Shown in pieces: positions 2,941 through 49,351 of a stretch of 62,828 bases of DNA; the first letter of the stretch is position 1; each line of letters begins with the position of its first letter. The position numbers and the translations under genes were made by a program. The notes beneath the pieces are model-generated. The model was not told the DNA's origin. It saw nothing but the letters and a program-made list of their open reading frames with translations, and did no database searches. This DNA comes from an uncultured Porphyromonadaceae bacterium (GTDB lineage: Bacteria; Bacteroidota; Bacteroidia; Bacteroidales; UBA12481): NCBI GenBank assembly GCA_964457845.1, contig CAYWHP010000003.1:19943-82770 (forward strand), given 5' to 3'.

Positions 2941-3110
2941 TGACGAGTGACGCGGGGGAATCGTGACGCGTGATGCGTGACGCGGGGGAATCGTGACGCG
3001 TGACGCGTGACGCGGGGGAATCGTGACACGTGACGCGTGACGCGGGGGAATCGTGACACGTGACGCGTGACGCGTGACGCGGGGGAATCGTGACGCGTGA
3101 TGCGCGATGC
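2941..3110. repeat. Tandem array of five ~30-bp units built from TGAC(G/A)CG heptamers
   Basis: Units of TGACGCGGGGGAATCGTGAC(G/A)CGTGA(C/T)GCG start at 2948, 2978, 3008, 3038 and 3075, with one extra heptamer at 3068-3074. There are no unique spacers. Confidence 0.95.
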
Positions 3111-3124
3111 GTCGTTGCACCGCT

Positions 3125-3148
3125 GTCATCCCCGCGCAGGCGGGGATC
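3125..3148 (+). repeat. REP-like palindromic hairpin (GTCATCCC type)
   Basis: GTCATCCCCGCGCAGGCGGGGATC: stem ATCCCCGC/GCGGGGAT with a 4-nt loop. Related to the copies at 48527 and 49253-49344. Confidence 0.8.
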
Positions 3149-3222
3149 GCTACCCTTGCACGAACTGCCGGCAAAGCGTTATTTTTCCTATTTTTAGGAA
3201 CGCTGAACCAATACCATTTCCG

Positions 3223-6120
3223 ATGCCAAAAAGAACTCTCATCGCAATCGCCTTATTATCAATCATTTTTACCAACACTCAATCGCAGGATATCCAGGGA
3301 TTCCGGGTACCCGACCTGACGCCGGTACCGCTGAAGGTTGCCGGAGTTGAAAAACCCGTGCAATCGCTGAACGGCGAGTGGACCTTCAGGATTAAGGATA
3401 AGGGAGGCGCCGAGCGCCCCATTCTGGTACCCGGCGAATGGGAGATGCAGGGGTTTTCCGTTACTGAAGGGGAGACGGCCGTTTACACCCGCCGGCTAGC
3501 GATACCTGCCGACTGGAAGGGAAAACCGGTATATGTGCGGTTCGATGCGGTGAGTTCGCACGCACGTGTTCTGGTAAATGGCAGGGAGGTGGCGCAGCAT
3601 GAAGGGAGTTTTGCACCCTTCAGCACCGAGATCGGCGGTGCGCTGAACTTCGCGGATGACCTGCTGGAGGTTGAGGTACAGGCACTCACCATCAGCGACC
3701 GGCTGGCCTGCACGTCGCAGTATGCCTGCCATACGGTTGGCGGAATACTGAGGAAGGTTACCCTGTTTACCACCCCACCGGTTCACCTGTCGGAAATCGT
3801 TATGAATACGAAGTTCGACAAGGCTTTCCGCGACGGGGTGCTTACGGTGACATCGGCAATTGTCAATCCGCCGGGCGTTAAAGCAGAAATACGGTATAGC
3901 CTTGTCGATGCAACCGGCAAGGAAATCAAATCCGCAGCCGTAAACGTTAATCCCGCCAAGCCGGAAGGCCGTGCAACAGCGACGGTTCCGGTTAAACGGC
4001 CGGAACAATGGAATCCTGAGCACCCCTATCTGTATACATTACTAACCCGAATCCTGATGGACGGAAAGGTTATCGGTTCGTACACCAATAAGGTCGGATT
4101 CCGGCAGGTGGACATCCGTGGCAACATACTGATGGTCAACGGAAAGCCGGTGAAACTGCACGGCGTGAACCGCCACTCGGTGTACCCGCTCACCGGGAGG
4201 AGTATAAGCCCGGAGCTCGACAGGCGGGATGCCGAACTGTTTCGGGAGGGCAATTGCAACTACATCCGTACGTCGCACTACCCGCCGTCGGAAGAGTTAC
4301 TCGACGCCGCCGATGAGCTTGGTCTTTTTGTTGAGAGCGAGGCATCGCTGTGCTGGATCCAGCACGGCGCGGCGCCGATATGGAAACTATGGAACTATCT
4401 GGATGACAAATACCTGCCCTATATGGTGCGGGCAAACATGGACAATATCCTTAACGGCCGGAATCACCCGTCGGTGATCATCTGGTCGCTGGGAAACGAG
4501 AGCCGCTGGAGCCCGCTTTGGGCAAAGGTTCTCGAAACGGTCAGGGCGCTCGACCCATCGCGGCCCACCACCTTCCACGACCAATGCTGGGGCGGGTACA
4601 ATAACGCCTGGAGCACGGCCGACATAGCGGTTTATCACTATCCCGGCCTGAACGGACCGGCAGCAGCGGATACCGGCAAACGTCCGGTGCTTTTCGGCGA
4701 ATATGCTCACCTCTCCTGCTACAACCGCCGTGAACTGCTCACCGATCCCGGCATCCGGAGCGCGTACGGACCTCCCCTGGTGCAGTTCTATGACAGCATC
4801 TACTATTATGGCGGTTGCCTTGGAGCAGCCATCTGGAGCGGGGTCGACGACATCTTTCATATGCCAGACGGCCAGATCGTGGGATATGGTCCGTGGGGCC
4901 CGGTTGACGGGTGGCGGCGGCAAAAACCCGAATGGTGGGGAATGAAAAAGGCGTACTCACCGGTAAGGGTGCTCTCAGCCGATTTTTCCGGCAAAAGTAT
5001 GGGCTATATCACGCTTACCGTTGAAAACCGATACGATTTTACCTCACTGAGCGAGATCAGGATTACCGCCGAATCAAACAGCATGAAGCTTCCTGTGGAG
5101 GCCTCGGTTCCGCCTCACGGAAAGGGTACCATACAGATTCCGGTGGAACCGGTGGCACCTGAAGTTCTGGTCACCTTTCATGATCCCCGGGGGTTTGCCG
5201 CGGCCGAAGAACGCTATAGGTTTGATGGTGAAACAGGCGTCGGGGTGGTAAAAACCGAATTGTCCATGTCCGAGAACGAGTCGGCGGTTTTTGTCAGGCA
5301 AGGTGAAATCATGTACACGGTAAGCAAACTCACCGGCATTATAACCAGCGCTTCAAAAGCCGGAAAACCCATGCTTACCCGCGGCCCGGTGTTCTGCCTG
5401 GTGCCCATGAACAGCGACAACGGCGGGAAACCAAACGTTGCCGGAGAAACCTATCAGAATAACATTTACCCGCTCAAAAATTATCCGTTGTACACCCTTT
5501 ATGCCTCCAGGATGGCAACCACACGCAGTGAGGAGGGCATCTCCATCGATATGGATCTCAGCTATACCGACGGAAAGGGCAGGCAAAGCTACCTGTTTAC
5601 GCCCGACGGCAGGCTGATTGCCGGATACGAAGTGCAATACAGCGGAGCCGACTCGGTTCCCTACCAATACGGATTTCTGCTGGAGCTGCCTGCCGCGATG
5701 GAGCGTCTCACCTGGAAGCGAAACGGAGAGTTCAGCATCTATCCTGCTAACGACATTGGCAGGACCGAGGGCACAACATTGCTGAACGCACGCCATATGG
5801 CCGGGGTGGAAGTACCGGGCGAAAAACCCGCAGGCGACTGGAAGGACGATGCCAATGATCTGGGAAGCAATGACTTCAGGTCAACCAAACGATTTATAGT
5901 TCATGCATCGCTCAACGACCGGGAGGGGAATTCCGTAACGGTTACCTCCAACGGACAGCAGCACTCCCGGAGTTGGTTCCAGGATGGGCATATCCAGTGG
6001 CTGATTGCCGATTACACCAACAACGGAAGCGAACCGTTTTATGGCACGCCCCATACCGACGGAAGGATCAGAACCGGCGGCCGGAAACTGTCGGGGAAGG
6101 TCGTTTTACATTTGCGCTGA
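3223..6120 (+). CDS. Glycoside hydrolase family 2 (beta-galactosidase-like), secreted
   Basis: GH2 motifs GVNRH, RTSHYP, WSLGNES (acid/base) and FGEYAH (nucleophile). Start reassigned to MPKRTLIAIALL (signal peptide); the ORF-track extension from 3097 runs through repeat sequence. Confidence 0.9.
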   Translation: MPKRTLIAIALLSIIFTNTQSQDIQGFRVPDLTPVPLKVAGVEKPVQSLNGEWTFRIKDKGGAERPILVPGEWEMQGFSVTEGETAVYTRRLAIPADWKGKPVYVRFDAVSSHARVLVNGREVAQHEGSFAPFSTEIGGALNFADDLLEVEVQALTISDRLACTSQYACHTVGGILRKVTLFTTPPVHLSEIVMNTKFDKAFRDGVLTVTSAIVNPPGVKAEIRYSLVDATGKEIKSAAVNVNPAKPEGRATATVPVKRPEQWNPEHPYLYTLLTRILMDGKVIGSYTNKVGFRQVDIRGNILMVNGKPVKLHGVNRHSVYPLTGRSISPELDRRDAELFREGNCNYIRTSHYPPSEELLDAADELGLFVESEASLCWIQHGAAPIWKLWNYLDDKYLPYMVRANMDNILNGRNHPSVIIWSLGNESRWSPLWAKVLETVRALDPSRPTTFHDQCWGGYNNAWSTADIAVYHYPGLNGPAAADTGKRPVLFGEYAHLSCYNRRELLTDPGIRSAYGPPLVQFYDSIYYYGGCLGAAIWSGVDDIFHMPDGQIVGYGPWGPVDGWRRQKPEWWGMKKAYSPVRVLSADFSGKSMGYITLTVENRYDFTSLSEIRITAESNSMKLPVEASVPPHGKGTIQIPVEPVAPEVLVTFHDPRGFAAAEERYRFDGETGVGVVKTELSMSENESAVFVRQGEIMYTVSKLTGIITSASKAGKPMLTRGPVFCLVPMNSDNGGKPNVAGETYQNNIYPLKNYPLYTLYASRMATTRSEEGISIDMDLSYTDGKGRQSYLFTPDGRLIAGYEVQYSGADSVPYQYGFLLELPAAMERLTWKRNGEFSIYPANDIGRTEGTTLLNARHMAGVEVPGEKPAGDWKDDANDLGSNDFRSTKRFIVHASLNDREGNSVTVTSNGQQHSRSWFQDGHIQWLIADYTNNGSEPFYGTPHTDGRIRTGGRKLSGKVVLHLR

Positions 6121-6174
6121 GCCTGATCGGTTTATCAGCAGCGGAAATCCGGGCAAATTTAATAGGCTTGCAGA

Positions 6175-6279
6175 ATGGCAGAGTGGTTGCAGTTTTTTCG
6201 ATTGCGCAGCATAATGATCGACAGTGAACCCGGAAAAGGAAGCACCTTTACACTGGTTCTGCCGGCTCTTCACGCCTGA
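6175..6279 (+). pseudogene. Remnant of a sensor histidine kinase C-terminus (HATPase_c G2 box)
   Basis: 6211-6279 translates as IMIDSEPGKGSTFTLVLPALHA*, matching the usual last strands of HATPase_c domains. No other kinase sequence lies upstream. Confidence 0.6.
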
Positions 6280-6309
6280 GCCAATCCCGCAAAATGATCG
6301 CCGTCAGAA

Positions 6310-7854
6310 TCAGAGTTCGAGCACCACAACGGATTTTGAGGGCATGGTTACCAGGAATGTTCCGTCGGTGGTCTTCTTATAACCCTTAAAATCAATCGGT
6401 TTAACAACATTTGGCTTGTCAAATGAGTTGAATGAGTTATACTCCGGTGCCGTGAGTACCGAGGCGGTTTTCACATTCCCGAAGTTTTTGCCGGCAAGCT
6501 GCACGGTCAGGGATATCTCTTTGTCGGGATTCAGGTTGGTGAGTGTTATATGAATTTTTCCGTCTTTATCCTCTGAAACCGAGCTGGTGAGTGCGGGGAT
6601 CTTCTTTCCGTCCATTTCGTAATCTTCGCAGATCAGGTAGCCCGGCAGCAGCTTTGCATCCTGGTGCACCGAAAACATTTTGAAAACATGATAAGTCGGG
6701 GTAAGCACCATCCGGTCACCTTCGGTGAGTATAACCGCCTGCAGGACATTGATTGTCTGGGCAATATTGGCCATCTTCACCCGATCGGCATGGGTGTTGA
6801 AAATATTCAAGGTAAGTGCGGCGATCAGGGCATCGCGGATGGAATTCTGCTGAAACAGAAACCCCTCATTTGTGCCGGGCTCCACATCTGTCCATATTCC
6901 CCACTCATCAACCATAAGGCCTACCTGCTTGCGCGGGTCATATTTGTCCATGATGTCGGAGTGCTTCTCAACCAGCTCATTGATTTTCAGCGCCTTTTCA
7001 AGTCCCGAGAAATAATATTTCTTCTCGAATCCGGTAGCCGGGGATTTATCCCCCCAGCTGGCGCCGGCGATGGTGTAATAGTGCAGTGAAAGACCGCTCA
7101 TGGCTCCCGGGCGCTGTTTCATCACCACATCGGTCCAGTTGTAATCGGCACCATTAGCGCCACAGCCAATCTGCTGCAGCTTCCACTGACCATAGATCCC
7201 TGCCATTTCGGAATAGTTGCGGAGCAGGTTCACATAGTAGTCGGGGGTCATTGATCCCCCGCATCCCCAGCTTTCGTTACCGATGCCGAAAAACTTGACG
7301 TTCCATGGCTTCTCCCTACCGTTCTGGCGGCGAAGATTGGCCATCGGAACATCCTTGTCGGAATTCATGTATTCGATCCATTTGGTCATCTCCACCACGG
7401 ATCCGCTGCCGACGTTTGCCGAAATATAGGGTTCGCAGCCCAGCATCTCGCAAAGGTTCAGAAACTCATGGGTGCCGAAGGTGTTGTCCTCCACCACACC
7501 GCCCCAGTGGTAATTCATCATTTTCGGACGCTGACTCACCGGCCCGATACCATCCATCCAGTGGTAAGTATCCGCAAAACAGCCGCCTGGCCATCTCAGA
7601 ACAGGGATTTTCATCTCCTTGAGCGCATTCACGATATCGGTCCGGTAACCGTTGATATTGGGGATCTTCGAATCGGGCCCCACCCAGATGCCGTCATAAA
7701 TGCAGCGGCCAAGATGTTCTGCGAAGTGACCGTAGATGTGCTTGCTGATCTGAGCGGTGCCCTTCGAGGCATCAATGGTGAGCTTGTTGTTGTCCTGGGC
7801 AATCAGCCCGGCGGCCAGGCAGATGGCCAAAGCGGAAAGGAGGATGCGTTTCAT
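6310..7854 (-). CDS. abfA: GH51 alpha-L-arabinofuranosidase, secreted
   Basis: YGHFAEHLGRCIYDGIW, RWPGGCFAD, GNESWGCGG (acid/base), DEWG (nucleophile), MANIAQTINVLQ; signal peptide. Confidence 0.93.
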   Translation of the reverse strand: MKRILLSALAICLAAGLIAQDNNKLTIDASKGTAQISKHIYGHFAEHLGRCIYDGIWVGPDSKIPNINGYRTDIVNALKEMKIPVLRWPGGCFADTYHWMDGIGPVSQRPKMMNYHWGGVVEDNTFGTHEFLNLCEMLGCEPYISANVGSGSVVEMTKWIEYMNSDKDVPMANLRRQNGREKPWNVKFFGIGNESWGCGGSMTPDYYVNLLRNYSEMAGIYGQWKLQQIGCGANGADYNWTDVVMKQRPGAMSGLSLHYYTIAGASWGDKSPATGFEKKYYFSGLEKALKINELVEKHSDIMDKYDPRKQVGLMVDEWGIWTDVEPGTNEGFLFQQNSIRDALIAALTLNIFNTHADRVKMANIAQTINVLQAVILTEGDRMVLTPTYHVFKMFSVHQDAKLLPGYLICEDYEMDGKKIPALTSSVSEDKDGKIHITLTNLNPDKEISLTVQLAGKNFGNVKTASVLTAPEYNSFNSFDKPNVVKPIDFKGYKKTTDGTFLVTMPSKSVVVLEL

Positions 7855-7886
7855 GGTTTGTTAATTAGTGTATGGAATACATTTAT

Positions 7887-7894
7887 CAAAGATA
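7887..7894 (-). promoter_or_regulatory. Bacteroidota -7 promoter element for the GH51 gene
   Basis: TATCTTTG on the minus strand, ~33 bp upstream of the ATG at 7854; matches TAnnTTTG. Confidence 0.55.
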
Positions 7895-7904
7895 ATGATT
7901 CCTT

Positions 7905-9086
7905 TCACCCTTCACCCAGGTTCTTCTGGTAATGTGGCAAACTAACCAGCAGAAAAAAAAGCAGTCCGGCCAGCGTAAGAATGGCGCCTGCCATATAGGT
8001 GCGGGAGAGCCCGATCGGTGCGGCCAGCATGCCGGTCACCACCGAACCAATGCCTATTCCGAGATCGAGGCCGGTAAGAAAGGTTGAATTTGCGGCACCG
8101 CGCCTTTCGGGTGTCACAAGGTTGTTGGCCATGGTCTGCAAGGTTGGAAAGAGGATGCCGAAGCCGGTTCCGATAAGGAAACCCGAAGCCAGCAGCGTAA
8201 GGACAACCGGCGCCTGCGAGAGGATGAGAAGCCCGGCGGATACCGACAGGATCGACAGAACCGAGATCCATGTGGGGCCATACCGGTCAAACAGGTGCCC
8301 CGAAAAAACCCGGGTGAGTGCAGTACCGATGGCCATTACGGTAAAGAACCATCCCGTTTCGCTGCTGAGATTATTCTCCCTGGCATACAGGGTTATGAAA
8401 GTAATAACCCCGCCATAGGCGGCTGCAATAATCAGGATATTAACAGACACCGGTAAAGCAGGCTTGGAAATGAGCATTTTCAAACTGAACTTCGTGTTTT
8501 GGGGCGGATAAAACCTGGGGTAGCGGATCAGTGCCGCCAGCAGGATACCCGCAATGGATACCAGCCCAGCCGTAAGGAAAAGGTTGGTAAAATGATCGTT
8601 ACCCATCACATTAAGGCCGATCAGCGGCCCTATCGACATGCCCACAGTGAACGAAAGGCCAAAATAGCTGATCCCCCTGCCCCGCTTCTCATAGGGGACC
8701 AGATCAACAACCAGCGTAAAGCCGGCGGTGGTGGCCGCTCCCCAGTTGAGGCCCTGCATGAACCGCAGCAGAATTAGCGGTGCAACAGCCACGGCGAATG
8801 GATAAAGGAAAAACAACATCGAAAATACCATGACGGAGAAGAGAAATATCATTTTCCGGCCAAACGAATCCAGCAGATAACCCGATACCGGTCGAACCAG
8901 AAGCGCCGCAAGGGTGTAGGTCCCTATAATGATACCCACCTGCCGCTTGCTCGAATGCAAAACCTCCTGCAAATAAACCGGTAAGGTCGGCATCAGGATA
9001 TAAAACGCCGTCGACATCAGGAATACTGACAGGGTGAGGTTTATGAAATTGCGAGAAAACAGGATGGAACCGTGTGGCTGGGGCAT
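7905..9086 (-). CDS. MFS transporter
   Basis: About 12 hydrophobic segments; motif A-like GYLLDSFGRK and GHLFDRYGP; EKRGRGISYF and ERRGAANSTF loops. Confidence 0.92.
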   Translation of the reverse strand: MPQPHGSILFSRNFINLTLSVFLMSTAFYILMPTLPVYLQEVLHSSKRQVGIIIGTYTLAALLVRPVSGYLLDSFGRKMIFLFSVMVFSMLFFLYPFAVAVAPLILLRFMQGLNWGAATTAGFTLVVDLVPYEKRGRGISYFGLSFTVGMSIGPLIGLNVMGNDHFTNLFLTAGLVSIAGILLAALIRYPRFYPPQNTKFSLKMLISKPALPVSVNILIIAAAYGGVITFITLYARENNLSSETGWFFTVMAIGTALTRVFSGHLFDRYGPTWISVLSILSVSAGLLILSQAPVVLTLLASGFLIGTGFGILFPTLQTMANNLVTPERRGAANSTFLTGLDLGIGIGSVVTGMLAAPIGLSRTYMAGAILTLAGLLFFLLVSLPHYQKNLGEG

Positions 9087-9187
9087 GGATTTTAGGTACC
9101 TTTTTCTTTTCTAATTTGAACAAATAGCCTGACACCTGCAAAGAAATGGCTAATTTTGATATTTAAGGACATAAAAAATCTCCCGTT

Positions 9188-11251
9188 ATGAAATACAGGC
9201 TCCTGACCTATTTACTGATTGTGATATTGTTCACCGGTTGCAAACCTGTGCCGGTTGATTACCTGGTGGAAACCAAAGCCGACAAAGATGCCCGCATGGA
9301 ATGGTGGCGCGAAGCCCGTTTCGGCATGTTCATCCACTGGGGCCTCTATGCCGTTCCGGCAGGAGAGTGGAAAAGCCAGACCAACCACGCCGAGTGGATC
9401 CGTGAATCAGCCCAGATCCCGCTTGAGGAGTACGACAAGTTCGTCGGGCAGTTCAATCCGGTGAAATTCAACGCCGACGAATGGGTAAAAATGGCCAGTG
9501 ATGCAGGCATGAAATACATCGTTATTACATCAAAGCACCACGATGGATTTGGCTTGTACAACTCCCGGCAAACCGAATTCGATATACTGTCGACTCCGTT
9601 TAAAAGGGACATCCTCAAGGAACTCTCAAAAGCCTGTCAGAAACAGAATATGACGTTCTGCTTCTACCATTCCATCATGGACTGGAACCATCCCGACTAT
9701 CTGCCGCGCCGCAGCTGGGAAAAAACACGCAGCGCCGACGGGGCCGATTTCGACAGGTACCGCACCTACATGAAGGCACAGCTCAAGGAGCTGCTCACCG
9801 GATACGGCAAAATCGGCGTTCTCTGGTTCGACGGCGAGTGGGAAAACACCTGGACCAGTGAGTACGGCAAAGACCTCTACAACCATGTCCGCAACCTGCA
9901 ACCCTCTATCATTGTCAACAACCGCGTAACCGTTGGCCGCTCCGGCATGGCAGGCATGACGGAAGGCGAAGAGTTTACCGGCGATTTCGGCACCCCCGAG
10001 CAGGAGATCCCTGCAACCGGGATTCCGGGCGCCGACTGGGAATCCTGCATGACAATGAACGACCACTGGGGGTACAATAGAAACGACAAAAACTTCAAAT
10101 CATCTGCTGAAATGCTTCACATGCTGGCAGATATAGCTTCAAAAGGCGGCAATTACCTTCTCAATATCGGGCCCACAGCCGACGGAGTGTTTCCGCAGGA
10201 GAGCATCGACCGCTTGAAGGAGATCGGTAACTGGATGCGCATAAATGGCGAAGCCATCTATGGTACACAGGCCAGCCCTTTCAAAAACCTGCCATGGGGC
10301 CGATGCACGCAGAAAAAGATGACCGGCAGCACGCGCCTCTACCTGCATGTTTTCGATTGGCCAACCGATGGAAAGCTGATGGTTCCGGGCCTTGGCAGCA
10401 AGGTAATCCGTGCCTACCTGCTGTCCGATCCCGGCCAGGAAGAGATCCCGGCCAACCCGGTACCGGGAGGCATCACCATCGATGTACCCATCTCTGCCCC
10501 CGGCACAGTTAACAGTGTTATTGTACTCGACATCGAGGGCGACCCCGCCGTTTTCGACACCCCGTTGATCGAAGCCGGCCCCGGCATTTTCACAAGCCAG
10601 GCAGCTGTCACCATAACCAAACAGGAGTCACTGTCCGAAATCCGGTTTACAACCGACGGAACTGAACCGACACCATCCTCTCCCGTGTACTCGGCTCCGC
10701 TCACAATCACCGGAACCACCATCATCAAGGCCGCCTGCTTCAGGGATGGCCAGGCAATGTCGGGAACTGCCTGTGATACGGTGACTAAAGTGATCCCTAA
10801 GCCCGGCAGAGCACTCCCCCAGGCGGCTGCCGGCCTTCTGTTCAAACTCTACCGCGGCGAGTGGGACAAAGTGCCCGATTTCAACGGCATGAAACCAAAC
10901 CTCTCCGGTATCGCCACCGATTTCAGTCTGGCGAACAAGCCGGCAGATGAAAATTTTGCCATCGATTACCAGGGTTTCATCAGCATACCCGAAGATGGCA
11001 TTTATACCTTTGGCCTCTCTTCCGATGACGGCAGCCTCCTCTATATTGGTGAAAATATTGCCGTCAACCACGACGGCCTCCATGGCGCAACCATGAAATC
11101 ATCAACACTGGCGCTTGGGAAAGGCCTTCACGCCATCCGGATCTCCTACTTCGAAAAAGCTGGCGGCAACAGCCTGCAGCTTACCTGGAAAACGGGTGGC
11201 GGAAATGCTGAGGCTGTGCCCGCGGGGGCATTCTTCTATTATCGGCAATAA
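9188..11251 (+). CDS. GH29 alpha-L-fucosidase lipoprotein with chitobiase/fn3-like and PA14 C-terminal domains
   Basis: Lipobox LFTGC; WWREARFGMFIHWG, KHHDGF, WFDGEW; EIRFTTDGTEPT module; PA14-like FGLSSDDGSLLYI. Confidence 0.93.
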   Translation: MKYRLLTYLLIVILFTGCKPVPVDYLVETKADKDARMEWWREARFGMFIHWGLYAVPAGEWKSQTNHAEWIRESAQIPLEEYDKFVGQFNPVKFNADEWVKMASDAGMKYIVITSKHHDGFGLYNSRQTEFDILSTPFKRDILKELSKACQKQNMTFCFYHSIMDWNHPDYLPRRSWEKTRSADGADFDRYRTYMKAQLKELLTGYGKIGVLWFDGEWENTWTSEYGKDLYNHVRNLQPSIIVNNRVTVGRSGMAGMTEGEEFTGDFGTPEQEIPATGIPGADWESCMTMNDHWGYNRNDKNFKSSAEMLHMLADIASKGGNYLLNIGPTADGVFPQESIDRLKEIGNWMRINGEAIYGTQASPFKNLPWGRCTQKKMTGSTRLYLHVFDWPTDGKLMVPGLGSKVIRAYLLSDPGQEEIPANPVPGGITIDVPISAPGTVNSVIVLDIEGDPAVFDTPLIEAGPGIFTSQAAVTITKQESLSEIRFTTDGTEPTPSSPVYSAPLTITGTTIIKAACFRDGQAMSGTACDTVTKVIPKPGRALPQAAAGLLFKLYRGEWDKVPDFNGMKPNLSGIATDFSLANKPADENFAIDYQGFISIPEDGIYTFGLSSDDGSLLYIGENIAVNHDGLHGATMKSSTLALGKGLHAIRISYFEKAGGNSLQLTWKTGGGNAEAVPAGAFFYYRQ

Positions 11252-11263
11252 CTTGAGTGAAAA

Positions 11264-11360
11264 CAATCGTAACGCGTGACACGTGACGCGTGACACGTGA
11301 CACGGAAAAATCGTAACACGATGCCTCGTGTTACGCGTCACGTGTTACGCGTCACGATTG
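11264..11360. repeat. Inverted heptamer array between convergent genes (long stem-loop)
   Basis: 11264-11290 and 11334-11360 are reverse complements at 25 of 27 positions. An inner perfect 9-bp hairpin CGTAACACG/CGTGTTACG spans 11312-11335. Confidence 0.92.
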
Positions 11361-11363
11361 CTC

Positions 11364-13763: not shown

Positions 13764-13799
13764 GCATGTAGGATTTAGGTCAGCGAAAGATAAATAAAT

Positions 13800-13950
13800 T
13801 CGTGACGCGTGACGCGTGACGCGCAGGAATCGTGACACGCGTCACGTATCACGAATCCCAAGCTTTAGGTGTCACGCGTCACGCATCACGCATCACGAAT
13901 CTCCCGCATCACGTGTCACGCGTCACGATTCTTCCTCGTCACTCGTCACT
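13800..13950. repeat. Inverted heptamer array (CGTGACG arm, then CGTCACG/CATCACG arm)
   Basis: TCGTGACGCGTGACGCGTGACGCGCAGGAATCGTGACACG followed by a longer run of GTCACGC/ATCACGC units ending CTCGTCACTCGTCACT. Confidence 0.92.
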
Positions 13951-19031: not shown

Positions 19032-19061
19032 CGCGTCACGCGTCACGTGTCACGTGTCACG
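19032..19061. repeat. Four tandem CG(C/T)GTCA heptamers
   Basis: CGCGTCA CGCGTCA CGTGTCA CGTGTCA CG, immediately after the stop codon at 19064-19066. Confidence 0.9.
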
Positions 19062-19063
19062 TT

Positions 19064-21434: not shown

Positions 21435-21552
21435 GGTATCAGGTTTCGGGTATCAGGTTTCGGGTTTCGGGTATCAGGTTTCGGGTATCAGGTTTCGGGT
21501 GTCAGGTCCTCCACAGAAGCGCCCGATACCTTGTACCCGATACCCGACACCC
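21435..21552. repeat. Second heptamer family: GGT(A/T/G)TC(A/G) x10 with a shorter inverted arm
   Basis: Ten units of GGTATCA/GGTTTCG/GGTGTCA at 21435-21504. The inverted arm CGATACC TTGTACC CGATACC CGACACC lies at 21524-21551. Confidence 0.92.
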
Positions 21553-22499: not shown

Positions 22500-22502
22500 A
22501 GA

Positions 22503-22547
22503 AGACAGAAGACATTAGACGGAAGACATCAGACAGGAGGACAGGAG
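22503..22547. repeat. Third heptamer family: AGACnnn x5
   Basis: AGACAGA AGACATT AGACGGA AGACATC AGACAGG followed by AGGACAGGAG; fills the gap between two convergent stops. Confidence 0.8.
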
Positions 22548-22549
22548 GA

Positions 22550-41293: not shown

Positions 41294-41298
41294 GAAAA

Positions 41299-41340: not shown

Positions 41341-41377
41341 CCATCTTCTTTCAATGAAATTCCTGTGACGACGCTGA

Positions 41378-42331: not shown

Positions 42332-42333
42332 CC

Positions 42334-42732: not shown

Positions 42733-42752
42733 CTCTTGTATTTTTTCAGATG

Positions 42753-43448
42753 CTACTTGGCCGGTTCGTTGAGCAGGTCCATGAATTCCGAAGAACGGGT
42801 TTCGAGAACAAATACAACAGTTTCAATTTTCGAAACAAGGATGTTGTAGAAGAAGAATGCCGGAATACCTACCAGAAGGCCGGCCGCCGTGGTTACCATG
42901 GCCGTGTAAATACCGTTGGAAAGGATGCCGATGTCGATGGTGCTGCCGGCAAGCGACATGTCGAAGAACGCACGGATCATTCCGAGAACGGTTCCGAGGA
43001 ACCCAAGCATCGGGGCAGCACCTGCGGCAGCTCCCAGCGAGGCTAGCCCGCGCTCCAGCTTGTAAATCTCGAGCCTGCCAACATTCTCAATGGCGGAATT
43101 CACATCGGTCATCGGACGGCCAATCCGGGATATGCCCACTTCAATCATACGGGAAACAGGGGTGTTCGTCGACTGGGCCAACCGGATGGCGGCTTCGATC
43201 TTGCCGTCATGTATGAACTCCCTTACCCGGTTCATGAAACCCTGATCCTCCACACTCGCCTTGCGGATGGCAAAGTATCGCTCAACGAAAACATAAACAG
43301 CCAATATCGACAACAGGAAAATAGGAATCATTACCCACCCGCCCTTCAGGGTCAGTTCCCATACAGACAAACTCTGGTTGACGGTTTTAACCGCTGCATT
43401 TGCGGCAGGCGACTGAAATGCTGGACTTAACAAAAACATCAGACTCAT
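42753..43448 (-). CDS. exbB: ExbB/TolQ/MotA proton channel
   Basis: GGWVMIPI, APMLGFLGTVLGMI, AMVTTAAGL. Confidence 0.93.
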   Translation of the reverse strand: MSLMFLLSPAFQSPAANAAVKTVNQSLSVWELTLKGGWVMIPIFLLSILAVYVFVERYFAIRKASVEDQGFMNRVREFIHDGKIEAAIRLAQSTNTPVSRMIEVGISRIGRPMTDVNSAIENVGRLEIYKLERGLASLGAAAGAAPMLGFLGTVLGMIRAFFDMSLAGSTIDIGILSNGIYTAMVTTAAGLLVGIPAFFFYNILVSKIETVVFVLETRSSEFMDLLNEPAK

Positions 43449-43541
43449 GGTAATACGATTTAGTGATCCCGGTAAATTTATGGAAAAAACGTACCGACTG
43501 ACCTGTTTAGTATAAACGGTTATCAGACGAGTTGTTAACGC

Positions 43542-46500
43542 CTAATTCCGCTTCCGCTTATTACGGTACTTCTGAACAAGGTCGCCAAACGTGTCGAACT
43601 CTTCACGATAGAACAATCCAACACCTTGAGTATAAGGTGCATACTCATATAAAAGATGATCATTGGCTCGGGTAAAAGCCTTAACCCGAACTTTCCCCGA
43701 CTGCTTGATTTTATACTCGATTTCCACATCCCCGACAAGCTGGTTGGCATTGGTGGCAGACGGTCTTACATCGACATTACCGTTTACATTGATTGTCATT
43801 CGGTTATCGAGAAACTGCTTCGACAGGGCAACCTCCACCTCATCGCTGGTAAGCTGGTCGCCGGGCCTGTAGTTGAACCCCACGTCGAAATCCTTGCTTA
43901 TCTGCGAGAGCCAGTAATTCAACTGATTGGAGAGCAATTCCGTAGTAGTGGCCAAACCGGCACTCTCGTAGCGGCTCGCAGTGCCGCTGCCTGTTCCGGC
44001 CAGCGGGGTAAAACGGTTCAGGATAAGCAGGGAGATCACCTGCTTGTTCATATCCTCTTTCGTAAGGTTCTGTAACTGAGTCCGCGCCAGGTCATTGCTG
44101 GTGGGGGGGAGAATAATGTTGAAATCGATAGCAGGGGCCTCAAGCTGGCCGCTCATCATCAAATGGCACTCCACCGGAAGCCGCTGGGTAAGATCAGGAT
44201 TCGACTCATCCTGAAGCAGATCATACAGTGCTGCTTTGGTGCGGTACACGGCATCAATATTCAGTTGCGCCCCCGAAACATCTCCGGTCCATTTCAGTGT
44301 GGCACCCGGCTCGATCTCGAGCTTCTTAACCGGCATGTTCTGAAGTGTAAACTGATAATCCCCCTTCTCGATGGTGAAATCCCCGTTCAACGTCCATCGC
44401 GAGGTTGGCGGAATCTCCACACGGAGGTTGCCGCTGCCGCGTGCATGAATCACGTTGCCCACCTTGGAGTCGAAAATGAGCTGCACCTCGGCATCGGGAG
44501 TCGCTTCGAGATCAATGGTAACCATGGCGCCATACAGGTTTACGGCATAATCCGGCTCCACCTCTGCCGAGAAATCAAGCAGGTCGGCCTCCGTCTCCTC
44601 TTTCGGCTTTCCGATATAGGTAACGAAATCCATAAAACGAGCCTCATCCGTGGTGGTCACCGGGATGTAGAATTTCGTTTTGGGACTCGTCCGCGCAGAA
44701 ACATCAATTTTCAAACTCCGCAGGGGTCCGGTGAGTGTCCCGACACCGGAAGCGTATCCCCTGCCCCAGTAGCCCTCATTGCGGGATTCAACTTCGTTCA
44801 GCAGCACAAAATCCTTGAAATCCACCTTCAGATCGAGCCGTATTTTATTAAAATCAGTGTGCCGCACCGCCCCGTTTACAGAAGCATGATTCCCTTCGTC
44901 ATCCTGCAGGTCGAGGTTGGTCACGCTAAATGCATCCGGCGTGATCACGACATTGTGCGTGAAATAAAATCGCGTATTCAGGTAATTAACTATAAATGAG
45001 GCCTTCTGAGCCATAATATGTCCATAGATCAGCGGCTTTTTACTGCTTCCCCGGATCATCACCTTGCCGGTTGCCAGCCCCTTCACATCCAGGAGCTCAT
45101 CGTACACAAACGGGTTGGCTATGTCGAGCCGAAGCTTTTCAACACTCAGATCAAGGTTAAGACTGTCGGTTACGGGATTGTACTGCCCCTGCAGCTGGAG
45201 CGTCTTGATGGCGCCCCTTTTGACAAGGACGTCCATAAGCAGGGCATCCCCGTTCTCGGAGCTCCGGCTCGACAGCGTAGTCTGCCCCATCGGCTGGCCG
45301 TTGATCGCCAGGCTGTCTATCCGCATCTCCGTCAGGAAACGCAGGCGGTTGCGTATATCAAAAATCCGGGCCGATCCGGTGATACGGCCGTCAAGCACAA
45401 AATCCTTTCCGGTTATTCGTTTGAAATTTAGCAAATTAACCCTTTGCAGATCAATATATAACGTATCCGAAGGATTGCGCGAAACCGACCCGTTCACCTC
45501 CATCTTTTCCTCATTGTGAGCCAGGGCAAAATTCTCAATACTGATTTTATCCTTGTCGGCCGATACCGCAAACCGATTGATGGTCCAAAGGCTGTCGTTG
45601 AGCACGATTCTCGATTCGGGGAACAGAAAGCTTCCGGTGAGACTGCCATCCTCGCGCTGCGCCATACCGCCCACACAGGCTATTGAGCCCCTCGATCCCG
45701 ACTGGCCGTTTTCATTCCATCTGAGCTTCATGTCGGCCAGATTACCAGATAGATAACCTCCCAGATTAATTTTTTCAAAAAGAGTACTCCGGTCAATCTG
45801 GAGCTTTCCCAGATCACCGGAAAGCAACACAGAATCACCTCTCGACATGATTCTGAAATCCAGCCCGGTAAACTGCCGCCCCATGACAACGAACTGGGGT
45901 GAGGTTCCCTCCAGCGAAAATGCCTGCTCTGCCGCATCGTAAAAGCCACCGACACGGGTGTTGTCCTTGCACTGGAAGCCGGGTATCAGGACCGTGGTTA
46001 CCGGGCCTGAATTCTTGATCTGGACATTAAAGGCAAAGCTGTTCAGGTGATCCTGTCGCACCGGCAGATTGCCGGTGACAGCCGGAACGAATTTCGCGAT
46101 CAGCGAACGGGCCTGAGGAGCCAGGTCATCAATATGAACATTTCCCACGATCCGGGCGTCGACATATTCCGATGAGAAGATTATTTTCCGCTTACCCAGT
46201 TCGGGAACCGAGGTAAGCGACATATCAGTCACCGGCAGTGTTCCCCGGCTGTTGGTGTAGCTCGAATTCCTGATCCGTATTTCGCCGTCCATTTCATCAA
46301 TGGCACTGCCGGTAAAACTGCCATGGAGATCAAGCTGCAGGCGGGCCAGCGTATCGCTTTTTATCAGGTTGAGTGCATAGAGGTCAGCTTTTTTAACCAG
46401 CAGGTCGAAATCAACAGCCGGTGTATCCTTGCTGAAATCGAAATTACCGTCAAGGTCGAGGTTTGCATTCGGGTCACGCAGGTTGATTTTTCCGTTGAAC

Positions 46501-48008
46501 CGGCTCCCTGTTGCCCTTCCGCTTATATTAAGGTACTGGAAAGTATAGCCGTTCAGTGTGAACTGTGAAACCTCTCCCGCCAGCAGGGCATTCACCGATT
46601 TTGCGCCATCCCATACGCCATCCACATTCAGGTTGAACTCCATCCCGGAGAATCCGGATGGCTGCGTCATGAGCTGGTCGGGATTAAAATCGCTGGCCGA
46701 CACCGATCCCTTGAAATTATAACCGGCAACCGGCCTGTTCTTGTTCACCTCGAGATTGGTTGTGAAATCACCGTAATCGAAGCTCCAGTTGCCCGTGGTG
46801 ATGAAATTCTCAAATGTTCCGGTAAAGACCCCGCGGTAGGTGACCGTACCGATTTTTTTCACAGCATCCGGAACATCTAGCTCGAAACCGGGTATCTGAC
46901 CGGCCAGTACATCCTCGCTGAGATTGGGCATATTCAGCTCCAGGTAGCGGGTTTTCAGGTCGAAAAAAGCCTCCTGCAGGCGGCCCGGGTAATTGTAAAC
47001 CAGGTCGCCTTCAAACGCTACCAGGCCCGGCCAGTTGACCATTGCATTCATTAGCCGTCCATTATCGGGCGAGCCGTTGAACACCCCGGCAATCTCGATC
47101 GGGTCGGTCAGCCCGGTACTGATCCCCGTGAGCAGGGTCAGGTCGATCGGACTAACATACGTTTTCGTATCAAGAACGATGTCCATTTCGGGACCATGGT
47201 TGCCCGCCCCGCTGCCGAAGATGCCGGTAACATTGGCCCTGAGGGCGCCCACATGGCTGTTCCCCGTAAGCAGTTCCAGGTTCTCCGTAAACACACCCTT
47301 CTTGCCAACCCGAATCGCGGCAGAGAACTGATTAACAAGGAAACCGCTCTGCTCCTGAAAGGATATATGGTCGATCACCGCACGGGTTTCGTCACCCTGC
47401 ATGGCGAACCGCCTTAGTGCTGCCTCGAGCCCCGTCACCAGTAAATTATCAGGATCAACCTGACCGGGCTTCTCCAGTGTCCCGAATTTTCGATACTGAA
47501 GGGAGCCGCGACGGACGAAAATCTGATCGGCGGCAACCGACAGCGGCTTCGTGGATTTAACTGTATCCGAAGATTTAAAAGATTCGAGCAGCACTTCGTA
47601 ATTCATCAGACCGGAGGGAAGCTGCCGCAGTTGAATTTTCGGATCCTCAACCACCACACGCGACAGGCTGAGCCGGTTTTTATCGATGTTGTATTTTTTC
47701 ACTGAAAGCCGGACCGACGAGGCATAGAAAAGGGTATCGTTTACGGGATCAAGGATCAGCAGATCGACCAGTTCGATTCGGTGCGGCCATCGTACCAGCA
47801 CCTTTCCCACACTCAGCCGGCCGTCATAGCGCTCCTCGATATTCGTCAGGAAGCGGTTAACCAGCCAGGTTTGAACACTCCTCATCCTCAAACTGATAAA
47901 CAGACCCGCCAGCACTACAATGAGTACTGCCAATACCGTTAAGGTCCTATTTATCGCTTTTTTAGGCAAGGAATTAAACTTTAGTAATTTTGACCCTGAA
48001 AAAATCAT
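43542..48008 (-). CDS. tamB: TamB / translocation and assembly module (DUF490) protein
   Basis: N-terminal TM anchor plus SVQTWL; long beta-rich body; C-terminal QVISLLILNRF...GDVEIEYKI...YTQGVGLFYREEFD. True start is 48008 (ATG) or 47969 (TTG), not 48107. Confidence 0.88.
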   Translation of the reverse strand: MIFSGSKLLKFNSLPKKAINRTLTVLAVLIVVLAGLFISLRMRSVQTWLVNRFLTNIEERYDGRLSVGKVLVRWPHRIELVDLLILDPVNDTLFYASSVRLSVKKYNIDKNRLSLSRVVVEDPKIQLRQLPSGLMNYEVLLESFKSSDTVKSTKPLSVAADQIFVRRGSLQYRKFGTLEKPGQVDPDNLLVTGLEAALRRFAMQGDETRAVIDHISFQEQSGFLVNQFSAAIRVGKKGVFTENLELLTGNSHVGALRANVTGIFGSGAGNHGPEMDIVLDTKTYVSPIDLTLLTGISTGLTDPIEIAGVFNGSPDNGRLMNAMVNWPGLVAFEGDLVYNYPGRLQEAFFDLKTRYLELNMPNLSEDVLAGQIPGFELDVPDAVKKIGTVTYRGVFTGTFENFITTGNWSFDYGDFTTNLEVNKNRPVAGYNFKGSVSASDFNPDQLMTQPSGFSGMEFNLNVDGVWDGAKSVNALLAGEVSQFTLNGYTFQYLNISGRATGSRFNGKINLRDPNANLDLDGNFDFSKDTPAVDFDLLVKKADLYALNLIKSDTLARLQLDLHGSFTGSAIDEMDGEIRIRNSSYTNSRGTLPVTDMSLTSVPELGKRKIIFSSEYVDARIVGNVHIDDLAPQARSLIAKFVPAVTGNLPVRQDHLNSFAFNVQIKNSGPVTTVLIPGFQCKDNTRVGGFYDAAEQAFSLEGTSPQFVVMGRQFTGLDFRIMSRGDSVLLSGDLGKLQIDRSTLFEKINLGGYLSGNLADMKLRWNENGQSGSRGSIACVGGMAQREDGSLTGSFLFPESRIVLNDSLWTINRFAVSADKDKISIENFALAHNEEKMEVNGSVSRNPSDTLYIDLQRVNLLNFKRITGKDFVLDGRITGSARIFDIRNRLRFLTEMRIDSLAINGQPMGQTTLSSRSSENGDALLMDVLVKRGAIKTLQLQGQYNPVTDSLNLDLSVEKLRLDIANPFVYDELLDVKGLATGKVMIRGSSKKPLIYGHIMAQKASFIVNYLNTRFYFTHNVVITPDAFSVTNLDLQDDEGNHASVNGAVRHTDFNKIRLDLKVDFKDFVLLNEVESRNEGYWGRGYASGVGTLTGPLRSLKIDVSARTSPKTKFYIPVTTTDEARFMDFVTYIGKPKEETEADLLDFSAEVEPDYAVNLYGAMVTIDLEATPDAEVQLIFDSKVGNVIHARGSGNLRVEIPPTSRWTLNGDFTIEKGDYQFTLQNMPVKKLEIEPGATLKWTGDVSGAQLNIDAVYRTKAALYDLLQDESNPDLTQRLPVECHLMMSGQLEAPAIDFNIILPPTSNDLARTQLQNLTKEDMNKQVISLLILNRFTPLAGTGSGTASRYESAGLATTTELLSNQLNYWLSQISKDFDVGFNYRPGDQLTSDEVEVALSKQFLDNRMTINVNGNVDVRPSATNANQLVGDVEIEYKIKQSGKVRVKAFTRANDHLLYEYAPYTQGVGLFYREEFDTFGDLVQKYRNKRKRN
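47985..47992 (+). promoter_or_regulatory. -7 element upstream of tsaD
   Basis: TAATTTTG matches TAnnTTTG, ~57 bp before the tsaD ATG. Confidence 0.45.
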
Positions 48009-48048
48009 ACCAAAATTAGAATAAAAACGGTCGCGGCCGGCAGATCTT

Positions 48049-49242
48049 ATGAGCATCACCATCTTAGGCATCGAATCATCCTGTGATGACACCTCCGCCG
48101 CGGTCATCCGCGACGGCTACCTGCTCTCCAACCGCATTGCCAACCAGGAAGTTCACCGTTCATTCGGCGGTGTTGTCCCTGAACTGGCTTCACGGGCGCA
48201 TCAGCAAAACATTATTCCTGTGGTTGAGCTCGCCATGCGCGAGGCAGGAGTAAAACCGGAGGAAATTACCGCGGTAGCTTTCACCCGCGGCCCCGGCCTG
48301 ATGGGCTCTCTGCTTGTCGGCTCCTCTTTCGCGAAAGGCTTCGCCATCGCACGCAACATACCGCTTGTAGCAGTTAATCATCTGCAGGGGCATGTGCTGG
48401 CTTTGTTCCTTCAGAAGCCGGGGGAAGATCGTGACGCGGAGGATCGTGACGCGTTAAGCGTGACGCGTGACACGGGAGATCGTGACGCGTTACACGTGAC
48501 GCGTGACACGGAAGATGGCAATAGTGTTCTCATCCCGGCGAAAGCCGGGACCCCGTCCCAACCAGCCGAAGCCACCAGGGACTTACATCACGCGTCACGC
48601 GTCACGCGTCACGTCTCCCCTTCGTTTCCCTTCCTCTGCCTCCTCGTCTCCGGCGGCCACACCCAGATCCTTGTGGTGCGCGACCATCTCGACATGGAGT
48701 TAATCGGCCAGACGATTGATGATGCGGCCGGCGAGGCATTCGACAAGTGCGGTAAGGTTATCGGCCTGCCCTACCCGGCCGGACCGGTTATCGACCGGCT
48801 CGCAAAGGAGGGCGATCCGCTGGCATTTGAATTCAGCCGGCCGAGGATTCAGGCACTGAACTACAGTTTCAGCGGCCTCAAGACCTCCTTCCTCTACTTC
48901 CTGCGTGATCGCCTGAAGGAGGACCCCGCCTTTGTTGAAAAGAACCTGAACAGCCTCTGCGCCTCACTTCAGCATACCATCGTCGAAATACTGCTCAACA
49001 AGCTCCGGCAGGCCTCGCGCCAGACCGGCATCCGCGAGATCGGCCTCGCCGGAGGCGTATCGGCCAATTCCGCCCTGAAGGCAGCCGTACGTGAGGAAGC
49101 CGTTAAACGCAACTGGAACGTTTACATCCCCGAACTGGCCTACACCATGGACAACGCCGCGATGATCGGAATCACCGGCTACTTCAAGTATCTGAAAGGC
49201 GAGTTCGCCGGGCATGATGTAGTGCCGCTTGCGAGAATGTAG
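48049..49242 (+). CDS. tsaD: tRNA N6-threonylcarbamoyladenosine biosynthesis protein TsaD carrying a 63-aa repeat-derived insertion
   Basis: ILGIESSCDDTSAAV, GGVVPELASRAH, GPGL, NHLQGH, VSGGHT, DDAAGEAFDK, GGVSAN, DNAAMI. Confidence 0.97.
   Translation: MSITILGIESSCDDTSAAVIRDGYLLSNRIANQEVHRSFGGVVPELASRAHQQNIIPVVELAMREAGVKPEEITAVAFTRGPGLMGSLLVGSSFAKGFAIARNIPLVAVNHLQGHVLALFLQKPGEDRDAEDRDALSVTRDTGDRDALHVTRDTEDGNSVLIPAKAGTPSQPAEATRDLHHASRVTRHVSPSFPFLCLLVSGGHTQILVVRDHLDMELIGQTIDDAAGEAFDKCGKVIGLPYPAGPVIDRLAKEGDPLAFEFSRPRIQALNYSFSGLKTSFLYFLRDRLKEDPAFVEKNLNSLCASLQHTIVEILLNKLRQASRQTGIREIGLAGGVSANSALKAAVREEAVKRNWNVYIPELAYTMDNAAMIGITGYFKYLKGEFAGHDVVPLARM
48427..48615 (+). repeat. Composite repeat element (heptamer arm, REP hairpin, inverted heptamer arm) inserted in frame in tsaD
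   Basis: 189 bp. CGTGAC units at 48430-48510, hairpin TCCCGGC-GAAA-GCCGGGA at 48533-48550, and CATCACGCGTCACGCGTCACGCGTCACG at 48586-48613. Confidence 0.92.
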
Positions 49243-49252
49243 GCAGGGGACA

Positions 49253-49351
49253 GGGTCCCGGCTTTCGCCGGGATGACAATCCACCAGACTAACTTACGAT
49301 AAACGCTCGCCGGAGCGTTGTCATCCCGGCGAAAGCCGGGACCCCGTACCA
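49253..49351. repeat. Inverted pair of REP-like hairpins (BIME-like) after tsaD
   Basis: Perfect 27-bp inverted repeat TTGTCATCCCGGCGAAAGCCGGGACCC at 49253-49279 (minus) and 49318-49344 (plus). The spacer contains AACGCTC-GCCG-GAGCGTT. Confidence 0.93.

Follow-up and report, generated by a model that had tools for sequence, protein, structure and literature searches.

An excess of heptamer repeats (short tandemly repeated repetitive sequences, STRR) has been described since 1990, and the proteins of 23S rRNA intervening sequences (IVS) since 1993. The heptamer class has been characterized by excess of the 7-nt unit, sporadic distribution, intergenic bias, a preference for about four units and occasional genic copies (PMC4679880, PMC4692102, PMC2700814). 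TAACTGA heptamers occur in Beggiatoaceae, cyanobacteria and five Bacteroidetes (PMC4679880), transcription has been described for most of the G-rich heptamers (GGGAATC/GGGGAYT) of Xanthomonas and Nostoc, which are found close to the ends of open reading frames (ORFs) (PMC4692102), and Geobacter metallireducens carries fourfold heptanucleotide elements (PMC2700814). The heptamer excess of many bacteria has been put down to slippage (Mrazek 2007, as summarized in PMC4679880). In the Coxiella 23S IVS, the S23p ORF is preceded by AGAAGA and a variable number of tandem GACAGAT heptamers, with RNase III cleavage at the first of these repeats (PMC4990558); the PF05635 family is described as Avd-like and otherwise uncharacterised (PMC10053308). 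Repetitive extragenic palindromes (REP) inside ORFs have also been described (PMC3733652).

Here we consider a dispersed heptamer family, CGTSACG, in a stretch of 62,828 nt (G000:C3:19943-82770, hereafter the window) from a Bacteroidales metagenome-assembled genome (MAG) of 5.24 Mb in 299 contigs, with 52% GC and an estimated completeness of 98%. The family has the form [9-nt purine-rich joint + (CGTGACG)2-4]n and is the same sequence as the inverted arms that enclose a four-helix-bundle gene elsewhere in this genome (G000:C36:19793-20458). The copies in the window are gene-less arm pairs (at 11264, 13796 and 48423) or solo arms (at 2939 and 19034). Our favored account, which we regard as probable, is that the arrays are gene-less arms of IVS-like four-helix-bundle hairpin cassettes which spread at the DNA level, were amplified locally by slippage and are essentially selfish or neutral. 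A preliminary description of the window, made from its sequence, had stated that the arrays could be assigned to no named family; this was too strong, as they fit both the dispersed heptamer class, STRR or long simple sequence repeats (LSSR) (PMC4679880, PMC4692102, PMC2700814), and the stem layout of ORF-bearing 23S IVS (PMC4990558).

Architecture of the repeat family

The heptamer unit CGT-S-ACG is an odd palindrome whose centre base alone sets its orientation. Given this symmetry, a scan that allows two mismatches mixes up the strands, and the counts presented here rest on a stricter orientation call. The genome scan finds 1145 units in 373 runs at 181 loci, which bears out the earlier suggestion of a dispersed family that is not confined to the window. 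Runs are short, with 2 units in 128, 3 in 107, 4 in 123, 5 in 14 and 6 in a single case, such that 358 of the 373 contain 2-4 units and none exceeds 6. The seven-base period is clear from runs of at least three units, of which there are 385 at period 7 as compared to 96, 55, 45 and 8 at periods 5, 6, 8 and 9, and the CGTSACG arrays have no G-quadruplex potential.

The preliminary description had noted (A/G)ATC or TTC joints ahead of the heptamers. Joints do exist, but they are 9-nt purine-rich spacers placed after each 2-4 units (among them CGGAAGAAT, found 34 times, CGGGGGAAT, 17 times, and CGGAAGAGT, 16 times), and identical joints recur at many loci. Joint and run together give module periods of 9+7n, namely 30 nt (56 cases), 37 nt (23) and 23 nt (19). 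With a variable number of modules the elements range from 14 to approximately 280 nt in length, so that no fixed-length consensus can be given.

The arrangement of adjacent runs is strongly polar. Writing forward runs as '>' and inverted runs as '<', we count '>>' 93 times, '<<' 75 times, '><' 24 times and '<>' not once (p ~1e-7 for '><' vs. '<>'), which means that arm pairs always have their joint-bearing heads pointing outward and which agrees with the bias toward inverted arms, as opposed to random orientation, that had been anticipated. The polarity is gone beyond 120 nt, where at distances of 120-6000 nt the counts are 18 for '<>', 16 for '>>', 12 for '<<' and 12 for '><'. As in miniature inverted-repeat transposable elements (MITEs), terminal inverted repeats are present in the form of these 24 '><' arm pairs, whose outer ends often read ..AAT|CGTGACG. 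Modules are 83% identical within a locus vs. 75% between loci, and joints are 63% identical within a locus vs. 41% between, a value that none of 1000 permutations reached. This likeness within loci suggests that ready-made modules were dispersed and then amplified locally.

The four-helix-bundle cassette

The only gene found between distant forward and inverted CGTSACG arms is a 145-aa ORF in the element C36:19793-20458, whose arms are '>>>' and '<<<<'. It matches PF05635 23S_rRNA_IVP (E 5.7e-36) and TIGR02436 four helix bundle protein (127 bits) at G000:C36:19974-20285, as well as the pentameric X. campestris protein PDB 2GSC (E 3e-30). The 678-nt cassette is predicted to fold with its arms in one long stem around the ORF, at −292 kcal/mol and a z of −19. 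A four-helix-bundle gene had been among the kinds of neighbor proposed for the arrays and is indeed found here, and the idea that the arrays spread by means of an enzyme encoded elsewhere holds insofar as a partner gene lies elsewhere in the genome, but that partner is not a known enzyme.

The layout extends to the whole gene family. All five PF05635 matches in the genome lie between inverted repeat arms, and the arms are of different types (CGTGACG, GGTATCG, a GGGCAGG-type unit, a 21-nt repeat and a simple inverted repeat). Of 498 small ORFs scored for inverted repeats in their flanks (median 9, 95th percentile 12), three are testable PF05635 genes, and these rank 1st, 6th and 8th; alongside them at the top stand two Y1/REP-associated tyrosine transposase (RAYT)-type genes and three GxxExxY genes. 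In the relatives, which are a sample and not a full survey, inverted short-repeat arms flank nearly all of the 30 PF05635 genes sampled (z 4-45), 17 of 19 further genes of the genus and 14 of 29 across the phylum (inverted-repeat score of at least 18), mostly with periods of 7 and 14. Arms of the GTGAC type turn up in further genera and families (G021, G022, G019, G031, G061, G090 and G086, of which G021, G086, G061 and G090 belong to other families). In a 79-protein tree the arm types group by clade, with 26 changes over all arm classes vs. 37.4 after shuffling (0 of 200 as low) and 7 changes vs. 12.3 for the GTGA class (0 of 500 as low).

It is the genome G010 that gives the clearest sign of movement or duplication of a whole unit in this analysis. 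Its two cassettes L244 (G010:C68:6922-8227) and L246 (G010:C43:7162-8464), with (GATGTGCT)n arms, are approximately 90% identical from outer arm edge to outer arm edge, while their flanks are unrelated and the similarity ends at the outer edges of the arms, which marks out a discrete duplicated unit of about 520 nt.

We reject an autonomous element with a transposase between distant '>...<' arms, since that orientation shows no excess at 120-6000 nt and the four-helix-bundle gene is the only one enclosed; the same observations speak against a MITE with a transposase-encoding autonomous relative.

Arrays in the window

The five arrays that had been reported in the window are all present. The 12-mer GTGACRCGTGAC has 37 matches with at most one mismatch vs. 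0.25 expected from shuffled sequence (maximum 2), and Tandem Repeats Finder places period-7 arrays at 2962-3112, 11275-11304/11327-11356, 13801-13823/13871-13950, 19035-19062 and 48423-48516/48588-48613. The elements and their companions are the following.

2939..3112, plus strand: array 1, six forward modules of (A/C)GTGAYR heptamers in runs of 2-4, five CGGGGGAAT joints, 30/37-nt period, between divergent genes
3124..3155, plus strand: REP1-type hairpin adjoining array 1, TGTCAT-CCCCGCGCAGGCGGGG-ATCGCTACCC, a separate repeat family
11264..11360, unstranded: complete gene-less arm pair of forward arm, 20-nt loop and inverted arm, filling the gap between the convergent stop codons at 11251 and 11364
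13796..13950, unstranded: arm pair in which three inverted modules come after a forward arm of 3 units and a CGCAGGAAT joint; it is flanked by a stop codon and by the next gene's start on the minus strand
19034..19061, minus strand: solo inverted arm of four units (CGTCACG twice, TGTCACG twice) between two tandem minus-strand genes
21435..21552, unstranded: arm pair of a second heptamer family, GGTWTCR forward and CCCGATA inverted
22500..22549, plus strand: short array of a third heptamer family, AGACNNN (GAGACGT-like), whose unit is the stem of the REP2 hairpin
48049..49242, plus strand: tsaD, 397 aa, the only copy in the genome, with an in-frame insert in the loop between NHLQGH..LALF and FPFLCLLVSGG
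48423..48516, plus strand: forward arm in tsaD, joints GGAAGAT/GGAGGAT/GGGAGAT, two units altered to CGTTAAG/CGTTACA (TGA to TTA)
48528..48556, plus strand: REP1 hairpin CTCATCCCGGCGAAAGCCGGGACCCC nested midway in the tsaD element, with the translation LIPAKAGTP
48586..48625, plus strand: inverted arm in tsaD, CATCACG, CGTCACG three times and TCTCCCCTTC, which pairs with the forward arm
49253..49351, unstranded: inverted doublet of the REP1 hairpin just 3' of the tsaD stop codon, cores at 49257-49272 and 49325-49340

The forward-plus-inverted arrangement had been proposed as frequent, and it is seen at three of the five sites (11264, 13796 and 48423), but 2939-3112 is forward only and 19034-19061 inverted only. 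Four of the sites are in gene gaps as claimed (one divergent, one convergent and two between tandem genes), with the fifth in frame in tsaD. The supposed embedded REP is a genuine hairpin but of another family, TTGTCATCCCSGCGAARGCSGGGACC, present in at least 112 copies. That the arm pairs form long hairpins is in keeping with their predicted folds, with z from −6 to −9: a 40-bp hairpin is predicted for 11262-11362 (−62.7 kcal/mol, z −8.7), the fold of 13796-13945 has a z of −6.4, and that of the tsaD arm pair has −103.8 kcal/mol and a z of −6.0. The second heptamer family (GGTWTCR/CCCGATA) also forms the arms of a four-helix-bundle gene, G000:C152:9242-9556.

In a profile search of the window neither PF05635 nor PF01797 has a match, and no Rfam family matches the window. 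CRISPR was discarded as an explanation because the spacers are all the same 9-nt joint and there is no Rfam CRISPR repeat match in the window; cas genes were not searched for. Two longest-ORF starts fall within arrays, a GTG at 13838 and a GTG at 3097 (window positions 13838/13762 and 3097/3224). The true starts next to arrays are probably the downstream ATGs, automatic calls being over-extended into repeat DNA.

Placement in the genome and copies within genes

Using a crude longest-ORF gene map, we find 130 loci with at least 4 units, of which 27 abut contig ends; just 15 of the other 103 are inside ORFs in a genome that is approximately 90% coding. The median distance from an array to the neighboring stop codon is 9 nt, with 63% within 30 nt, and convergent gaps hold 24 of the 88 classified intergenic loci as compared to 16% of all gaps (p ~0.003 by our own arithmetic). 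Orientation of the arrays shows no relation to GC skew (p 0.90) or to gene strand (p 0.74), which rules out replication or transcription polarity as the explanation.

Eleven host ORFs have Pfam domains that span or bracket the insert, these being TsaD and ten that were tested (a cytidylyltransferase, a GltD-like protein, an E2 acyltransferase in its linker, AspRS, FAD_binding_2, a flippase, an M1 peptidase, a fucosidase, IspG and Polysacc_synt_2). The genes tsaD, ispG and aspS are essential and each is present as a single copy in this genome, so the interrupted genes must work; they hold 20-70 extra codons of repeat. The in-gene copies are kept open and presumably translated. The CGTCACG strand has no stop in any of its three frames and codes for RHASRVT repeats, whereas the forward strand contains a TGA in each unit. 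On coding strands the centre base is C in 74 cases, G in 23, T in 9 and A in none, while A and T each occur 24 times in intergenic copies; forward units are thus rescued through the TTA form CGTTACG, and the TAA form CGTAACG does not occur there. Each of the six genic arm pairs has at least one open frame, vs. 4 of 18 intergenic pairs. Stop-free, in-frame insertion in loops of conserved proteins is thus found in tsaD, ispG, aspS, the E2 acyltransferase, the cytidylyltransferase and others. It is clear that the arrays survive almost only in gene gaps and tolerant protein loops.

The best 80 tsaD loci of other genomes match over 996-1050 nt, too short for the 63-codon insert of the window's tsaD, and this insert is absent from six aligned loci of other genomes. 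In the AlphaFold model of TsaD, residues 122-188 are predicted to be an unstructured loop with a pLDDT of 26-40, between a helix (111-120) and a strand (195-201), and the remainder of the protein is well modelled. We find the depth of this penetration significant in itself, as essential single-copy genes carry repeat codons, their frame is kept by point changes and their loops are refilled species by species.

Turnover at fixed sites in relatives

An exact 21-mer of the family occurs 113 times in G000 and at most 11 times in eleven other genomes, and is absent from the rest. All of the positive genomes belong to the same genus except one, G021, in which the lone match is the downstream arm of its PF05635 gene. 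Arrays of period 7 mark the genus, with 34 runs in 347 kb of nine members as compared to 1 run in 293 kb of other genera of the family and order, and the leading heptamer units differ from species to species. The content of three protein loops changes accordingly.

tsaD loop: empty in G004 and G012; (CCGACAA)4 in G008, G010 and G018; REP1 hairpin in G006
tsaD loop: GACGGAT arm pair in G017; more than 170 nt of ACGAGAC and CCGATAC in G014, where it breaks the contig
tsaD loop outside the genus: L073:1867-1933 (CANIQT010000023.1, an unrelated Bacteroidetes MAG), GAATCAA and AACCAAC heptamer arrays
ispG loop: CGTCACK in G000; CCGAYAA in G008, G010 and G013; CTGGTCA in G011 and G001
ispG loop: GATACCC and REP1 in G007; REP1 in G009; none in G018, G004 and G005
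aspS loop: CGTGAC-type arm pairs in G000, G018, G013, G009, G015 and G001; GGTTTCG in G011 and G017
aspS loop: CCGACAA family in G008; none in G004 and G012

Beyond the genus, too, the tsaD loop recurs as a place where arrays land or are tolerated. The tsaD, ispG and aspS loops of one genome tend to hold that genome's own family, which indicates that the sites are retained while the repeats in them are replaced in step from locus to locus. The explanation is either conversion or re-seeding of arrays by others or saturation of the permissive sites by the family that happens to be active. The family that fills the loops is also the arm family of four-helix-bundle genes in G000, G011, G005, G007 and G010.

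Some of these loops are split across contigs in the relatives, the tsaD loop in G014 and the ispG loop in G013, G017, G003 and G001, and 27-33 CGTSACG loci genome-wide lie within 300 nt of a contig end. Heptamer arrays are therefore of practical interest as a systematic source of short-read assembly breaks and of inflated or split gene calls in Bacteroidales MAGs.

Neighboring repeat families and Y1 genes

The REP1 hairpin family, TTGTCATCCCSGCGAARGCSGGGACCSCTACCCTTACACGGACTGCC, has at least 112 copies, often in tandem arrays of 48 or 80 nt (contigs C8, C10 and C23). It is translated within genes as ..PAKAG.. and occupies the same tsaD and ispG loops in relatives (G006, G007 and G009). REP2 hairpins, GTAGAGACG(C/T)..CGTCTCTAC, have 160 genomic sites, 21 of which are within 60 nt of a CGTSACG array although only 0.6% of the genome is that close. 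At about 25 loci the two form composites, [array]-CGAT-GTAGAGACGCATAAATGCGTCTC, in which the CGTGACG array is followed directly by the REP2 hairpin, and the REP2 stem is itself the third heptamer family, GAGACGT.

Genes of the Y1/RAYT type had also been proposed as neighbors of the arrays, but the two that the genome has are flanked by REP2 and REP3 instead. A RAYT-like gene at G000:C103:12234-12758, with the HUH motif HLH, lies between two inverted REP2 copies, and its protein reaches 58.6 bits for NF047646, below the NCBIfam cut-off of 80. An IS200-like Y1 gene at G000:C190:338-784 (148 aa, NF033573 66 bits) lies between perfectly inverted hairpins CATTAACCCCGCACTTTAGTGTGGGGG (REP3) and adjoins a REP1 tandem array at the contig start.

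A second family of small genes has a hairpin-cassette layout like that of the four-helix-bundle genes. These are the GxxExxY genes (TIGR04256, PD-(D/E)XK-like) of G000 at C74:15519-15935, C38:23769-24179 and C29:24406-24819, each of which lies between inverted arms of short CACGGAG/CACAGAG-type tandem repeats.

Proposed mechanism and alternative explanations

In the mechanism that we propose, the arrays would be derived from, or maintained alongside, four-helix-bundle cassettes and would spread at the DNA level by copying or conversion between sites. Spread at the DNA level seems reasonable, as opposed to a retro route, since no reverse transcriptase gene is found; copying of the retro-element or diversity-generating retroelement type was rejected for lack of an RVT_1 match in a genome of an estimated 98% completeness. 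Arrays would then grow or shrink locally through slippage or unequal recombination of whole modules. They would be essentially selfish or neutral, with long hairpins in DNA and RNA as their direct effect, and arm pairs that are transcribed may be substrates of RNase III, by analogy with rRNA intervening sequences such as that of Coxiella.

Several observations weigh against this account. Only 1 of the 181 CGTSACG loci carries a gene, and the cassette-internal sequence CGAAAGGTCCG follows the arm at only 2-4 gene-less loci. PF05635 genes are also common in relatives that have no dispersed arrays, and the gene alone thus does not drive proliferation. We know of no catalytic activity in the four-helix-bundle family, and the genome, at an estimated 98% completeness, contains no match to RVT_1. 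The co-clustering of arm type with protein clade is also expected from simple linkage, and the direction may be the reverse, with cassettes settling into pre-existing array hairpins. A target-site duplication cannot be defined, as the element ends are fuzzy and the orthologous empty sites too diverged. Finally, copy numbers and some structures of a MAG may be mis-assembled, with 27-33 loci at contig ends.

The arrays could instead be ordinary heptanucleotide microsatellites (LSSR) that arise by polymerase slippage in place, with no mobile element or partner gene, the link to four-helix-bundle genes being a coincidence of two things that both accumulate in gene gaps. Heptamer excess has been so attributed in many bacteria (Mrazek 2007, in the summary of PMC4679880), and slippage accounts well for greater homogeneity within than between loci, for several unrelated unit families that all have period 7 and for copy numbers at one site that differ between species. 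We nevertheless judge it unlikely, because the same 9-nt joints and the same punctuation every 3-4 units recur at dozens of unlinked loci, runs stop at 4-6 units as free slippage would not, the '><' polarity is strict (24:0), arms bracket PF05635 genes far more often than other small ORFs and the duplicated unit of G010 ends exactly at the arm edges. Movement by a RAYT (a Y1 HUH transposase), as in Pseudomonas and E. coli, with the arrays as elaborated REPs or REPINs (REP doublets forming hairpins), is less plausible still, and we think it improbable. The two Y1/RAYT-like genes between inverted hairpins (C190 and C103), the proximity of 21 of 160 REP2 hairpins to arrays vs. 0.6% of the genome, the ~25 composite loci and the identity of GAGACGT with the REP2 stem would all be in its favor. 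Each of these Y1 genes, however, is flanked by its own hairpins (REP3 and REP2) and not by CGTSACG arrays, Y1 gene counts across the genus do not track array counts, the C103 protein falls below the cut-off (58.6 vs. 80 bits) and the arrays have no single conserved 20-40-nt hairpin with a GTAG tag.

Equally improbable in our estimation is that the host keeps the arrays for a function in cis, as bidirectional terminators, stabilizers of 3' ends or a regulator-binding platform. Their closeness to stop codons (median 9 nt, 63% within 30 nt), the over-representation in convergent gaps (24 of 88 vs. 16%), the strong predicted hairpins and the mostly transcribed G-rich heptamers near ORF ends in Xanthomonas and Nostoc (PMC4692102) are what such a role would lead one to expect. 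Purifying selection on a random inserter, though, would also leave it close to stop codons, and the hairpins lack T-runs. Orientation is unrelated to gene strand or GC skew, there are copies within essential coding sequence, to which termination or cleavage by RNase III would be harmful, and one and the same site holds different unit families in different species and is empty in two. Taken together, we continue to favor gene-less arms of IVS-like cassettes.

A stronger version of this account, which we put forward tentatively as a possibility, is that PF05635 (S23p/Avd-like) proteins and heptamer arrays make up one autonomous/non-autonomous system, in which the pentamer would recognize its own array of 3-5 units and help arms to be copied or converted into new sites and existing arrays. 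If true, this would explain why heptamers are in excess in Bacteroidota, cyanobacteria, Xanthomonas and Geobacter, how ORF-bearing rRNA intervening sequences arose and why fixed-site arrays (tsaD, ispG and aspS) switch in step to a genome's current family; G000, with one armed gene and approximately 180 gene-less copies, would then be a clear burst of the non-autonomous form.

Comparison with known systems

Palindromic selfish DNA tolerated in frame in the surface loops of housekeeping proteins recalls the Rickettsia palindromic elements (RPE), which Ogata et al. reportedly described in 2000 as lying in frame in protein genes with no transposase known. RPEs are said to differ from the present arrays in having a fixed consensus of 100-150 bp, no heptamer periodicity and no gene cassette. 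The small dispersed repeats (SDR) that Elhai et al. reportedly found nested in Nostoc heptamer arrays in 2008 are likewise short hairpins inside heptamer arrays, as REP1 is in the tsaD and ispG loops, but their sequences are different and they belong to a different phylum.

The likeness to REP/bacterial interspersed mosaic elements and to REPIN-RAYT systems (PMC3116915, PMC3733652) lies in small extragenic palindromes that are clustered, often inverted, mostly placed after genes and occasionally found in ORFs, and in a single-copy partner gene flanked by the same repeat. The partner of the arrays, however, is not a Y1 transposase (neither C190 nor C103, the two that were checked, is flanked by CGTSACG arrays), and the repeat is a tandem array in place of a single 20-40-nt palindrome with a GTAG/CGTC tag. 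The genome's own REP1-3 are separate from the arrays and only sometimes nested in or adjoining them.

With the STRR/LSSR class, to which the cyanobacterial STRR belong, the family shares the 7-nt unit, hundreds of dispersed loci, several unit families per genome, a preference for approximately 3-4 units, a non-coding bias near ORF ends, occasional genic copies and lineage-specific bursts; the defining features of the class, excess of period 7, many dispersed loci of one family and over-representation in non-coding DNA, are all found here. It differs in its odd-palindrome unit, conserved 9-nt joint, modules of 30/37 nt, strict forward-then-inverted arms, lack of G-quadruplex potential and a partner gene with the same arms. 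A literature search by the exact repeat sequence returned no paper, and within the searchable literature we found none tying the PF05635 family to dispersed heptamer arrays beyond the Coxiella IVS.

It is the ORF-bearing 23S IVS (Coxiella burnetii S23p, PMC4990558; Leptospira as cited there) that the cassette resembles in having a PF05635 ORF within inverted long-stem arms and, in the 5' arm, a purine-rich motif followed by variable tandem heptamers; these IVS, too, are seen as selfish and possibly once mobile. The copies described here, unlike the IVS, lie outside rRNA in gene gaps and coding loops, away from the helix 25/45 location in 23S rRNA. Their arms are much longer (to ~95 bp) and built wholly of modules, and gene-less derivatives occupy 181 loci, including loops of proteins. 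Window copies are without an ORF, which is enclosed only at C36, while the heptameric inverted arms with a predicted long stem are common to both. Two old unexplained features, heptamer excess and the 23S IVS proteins, are in this way tied together in testable form by a single genome.

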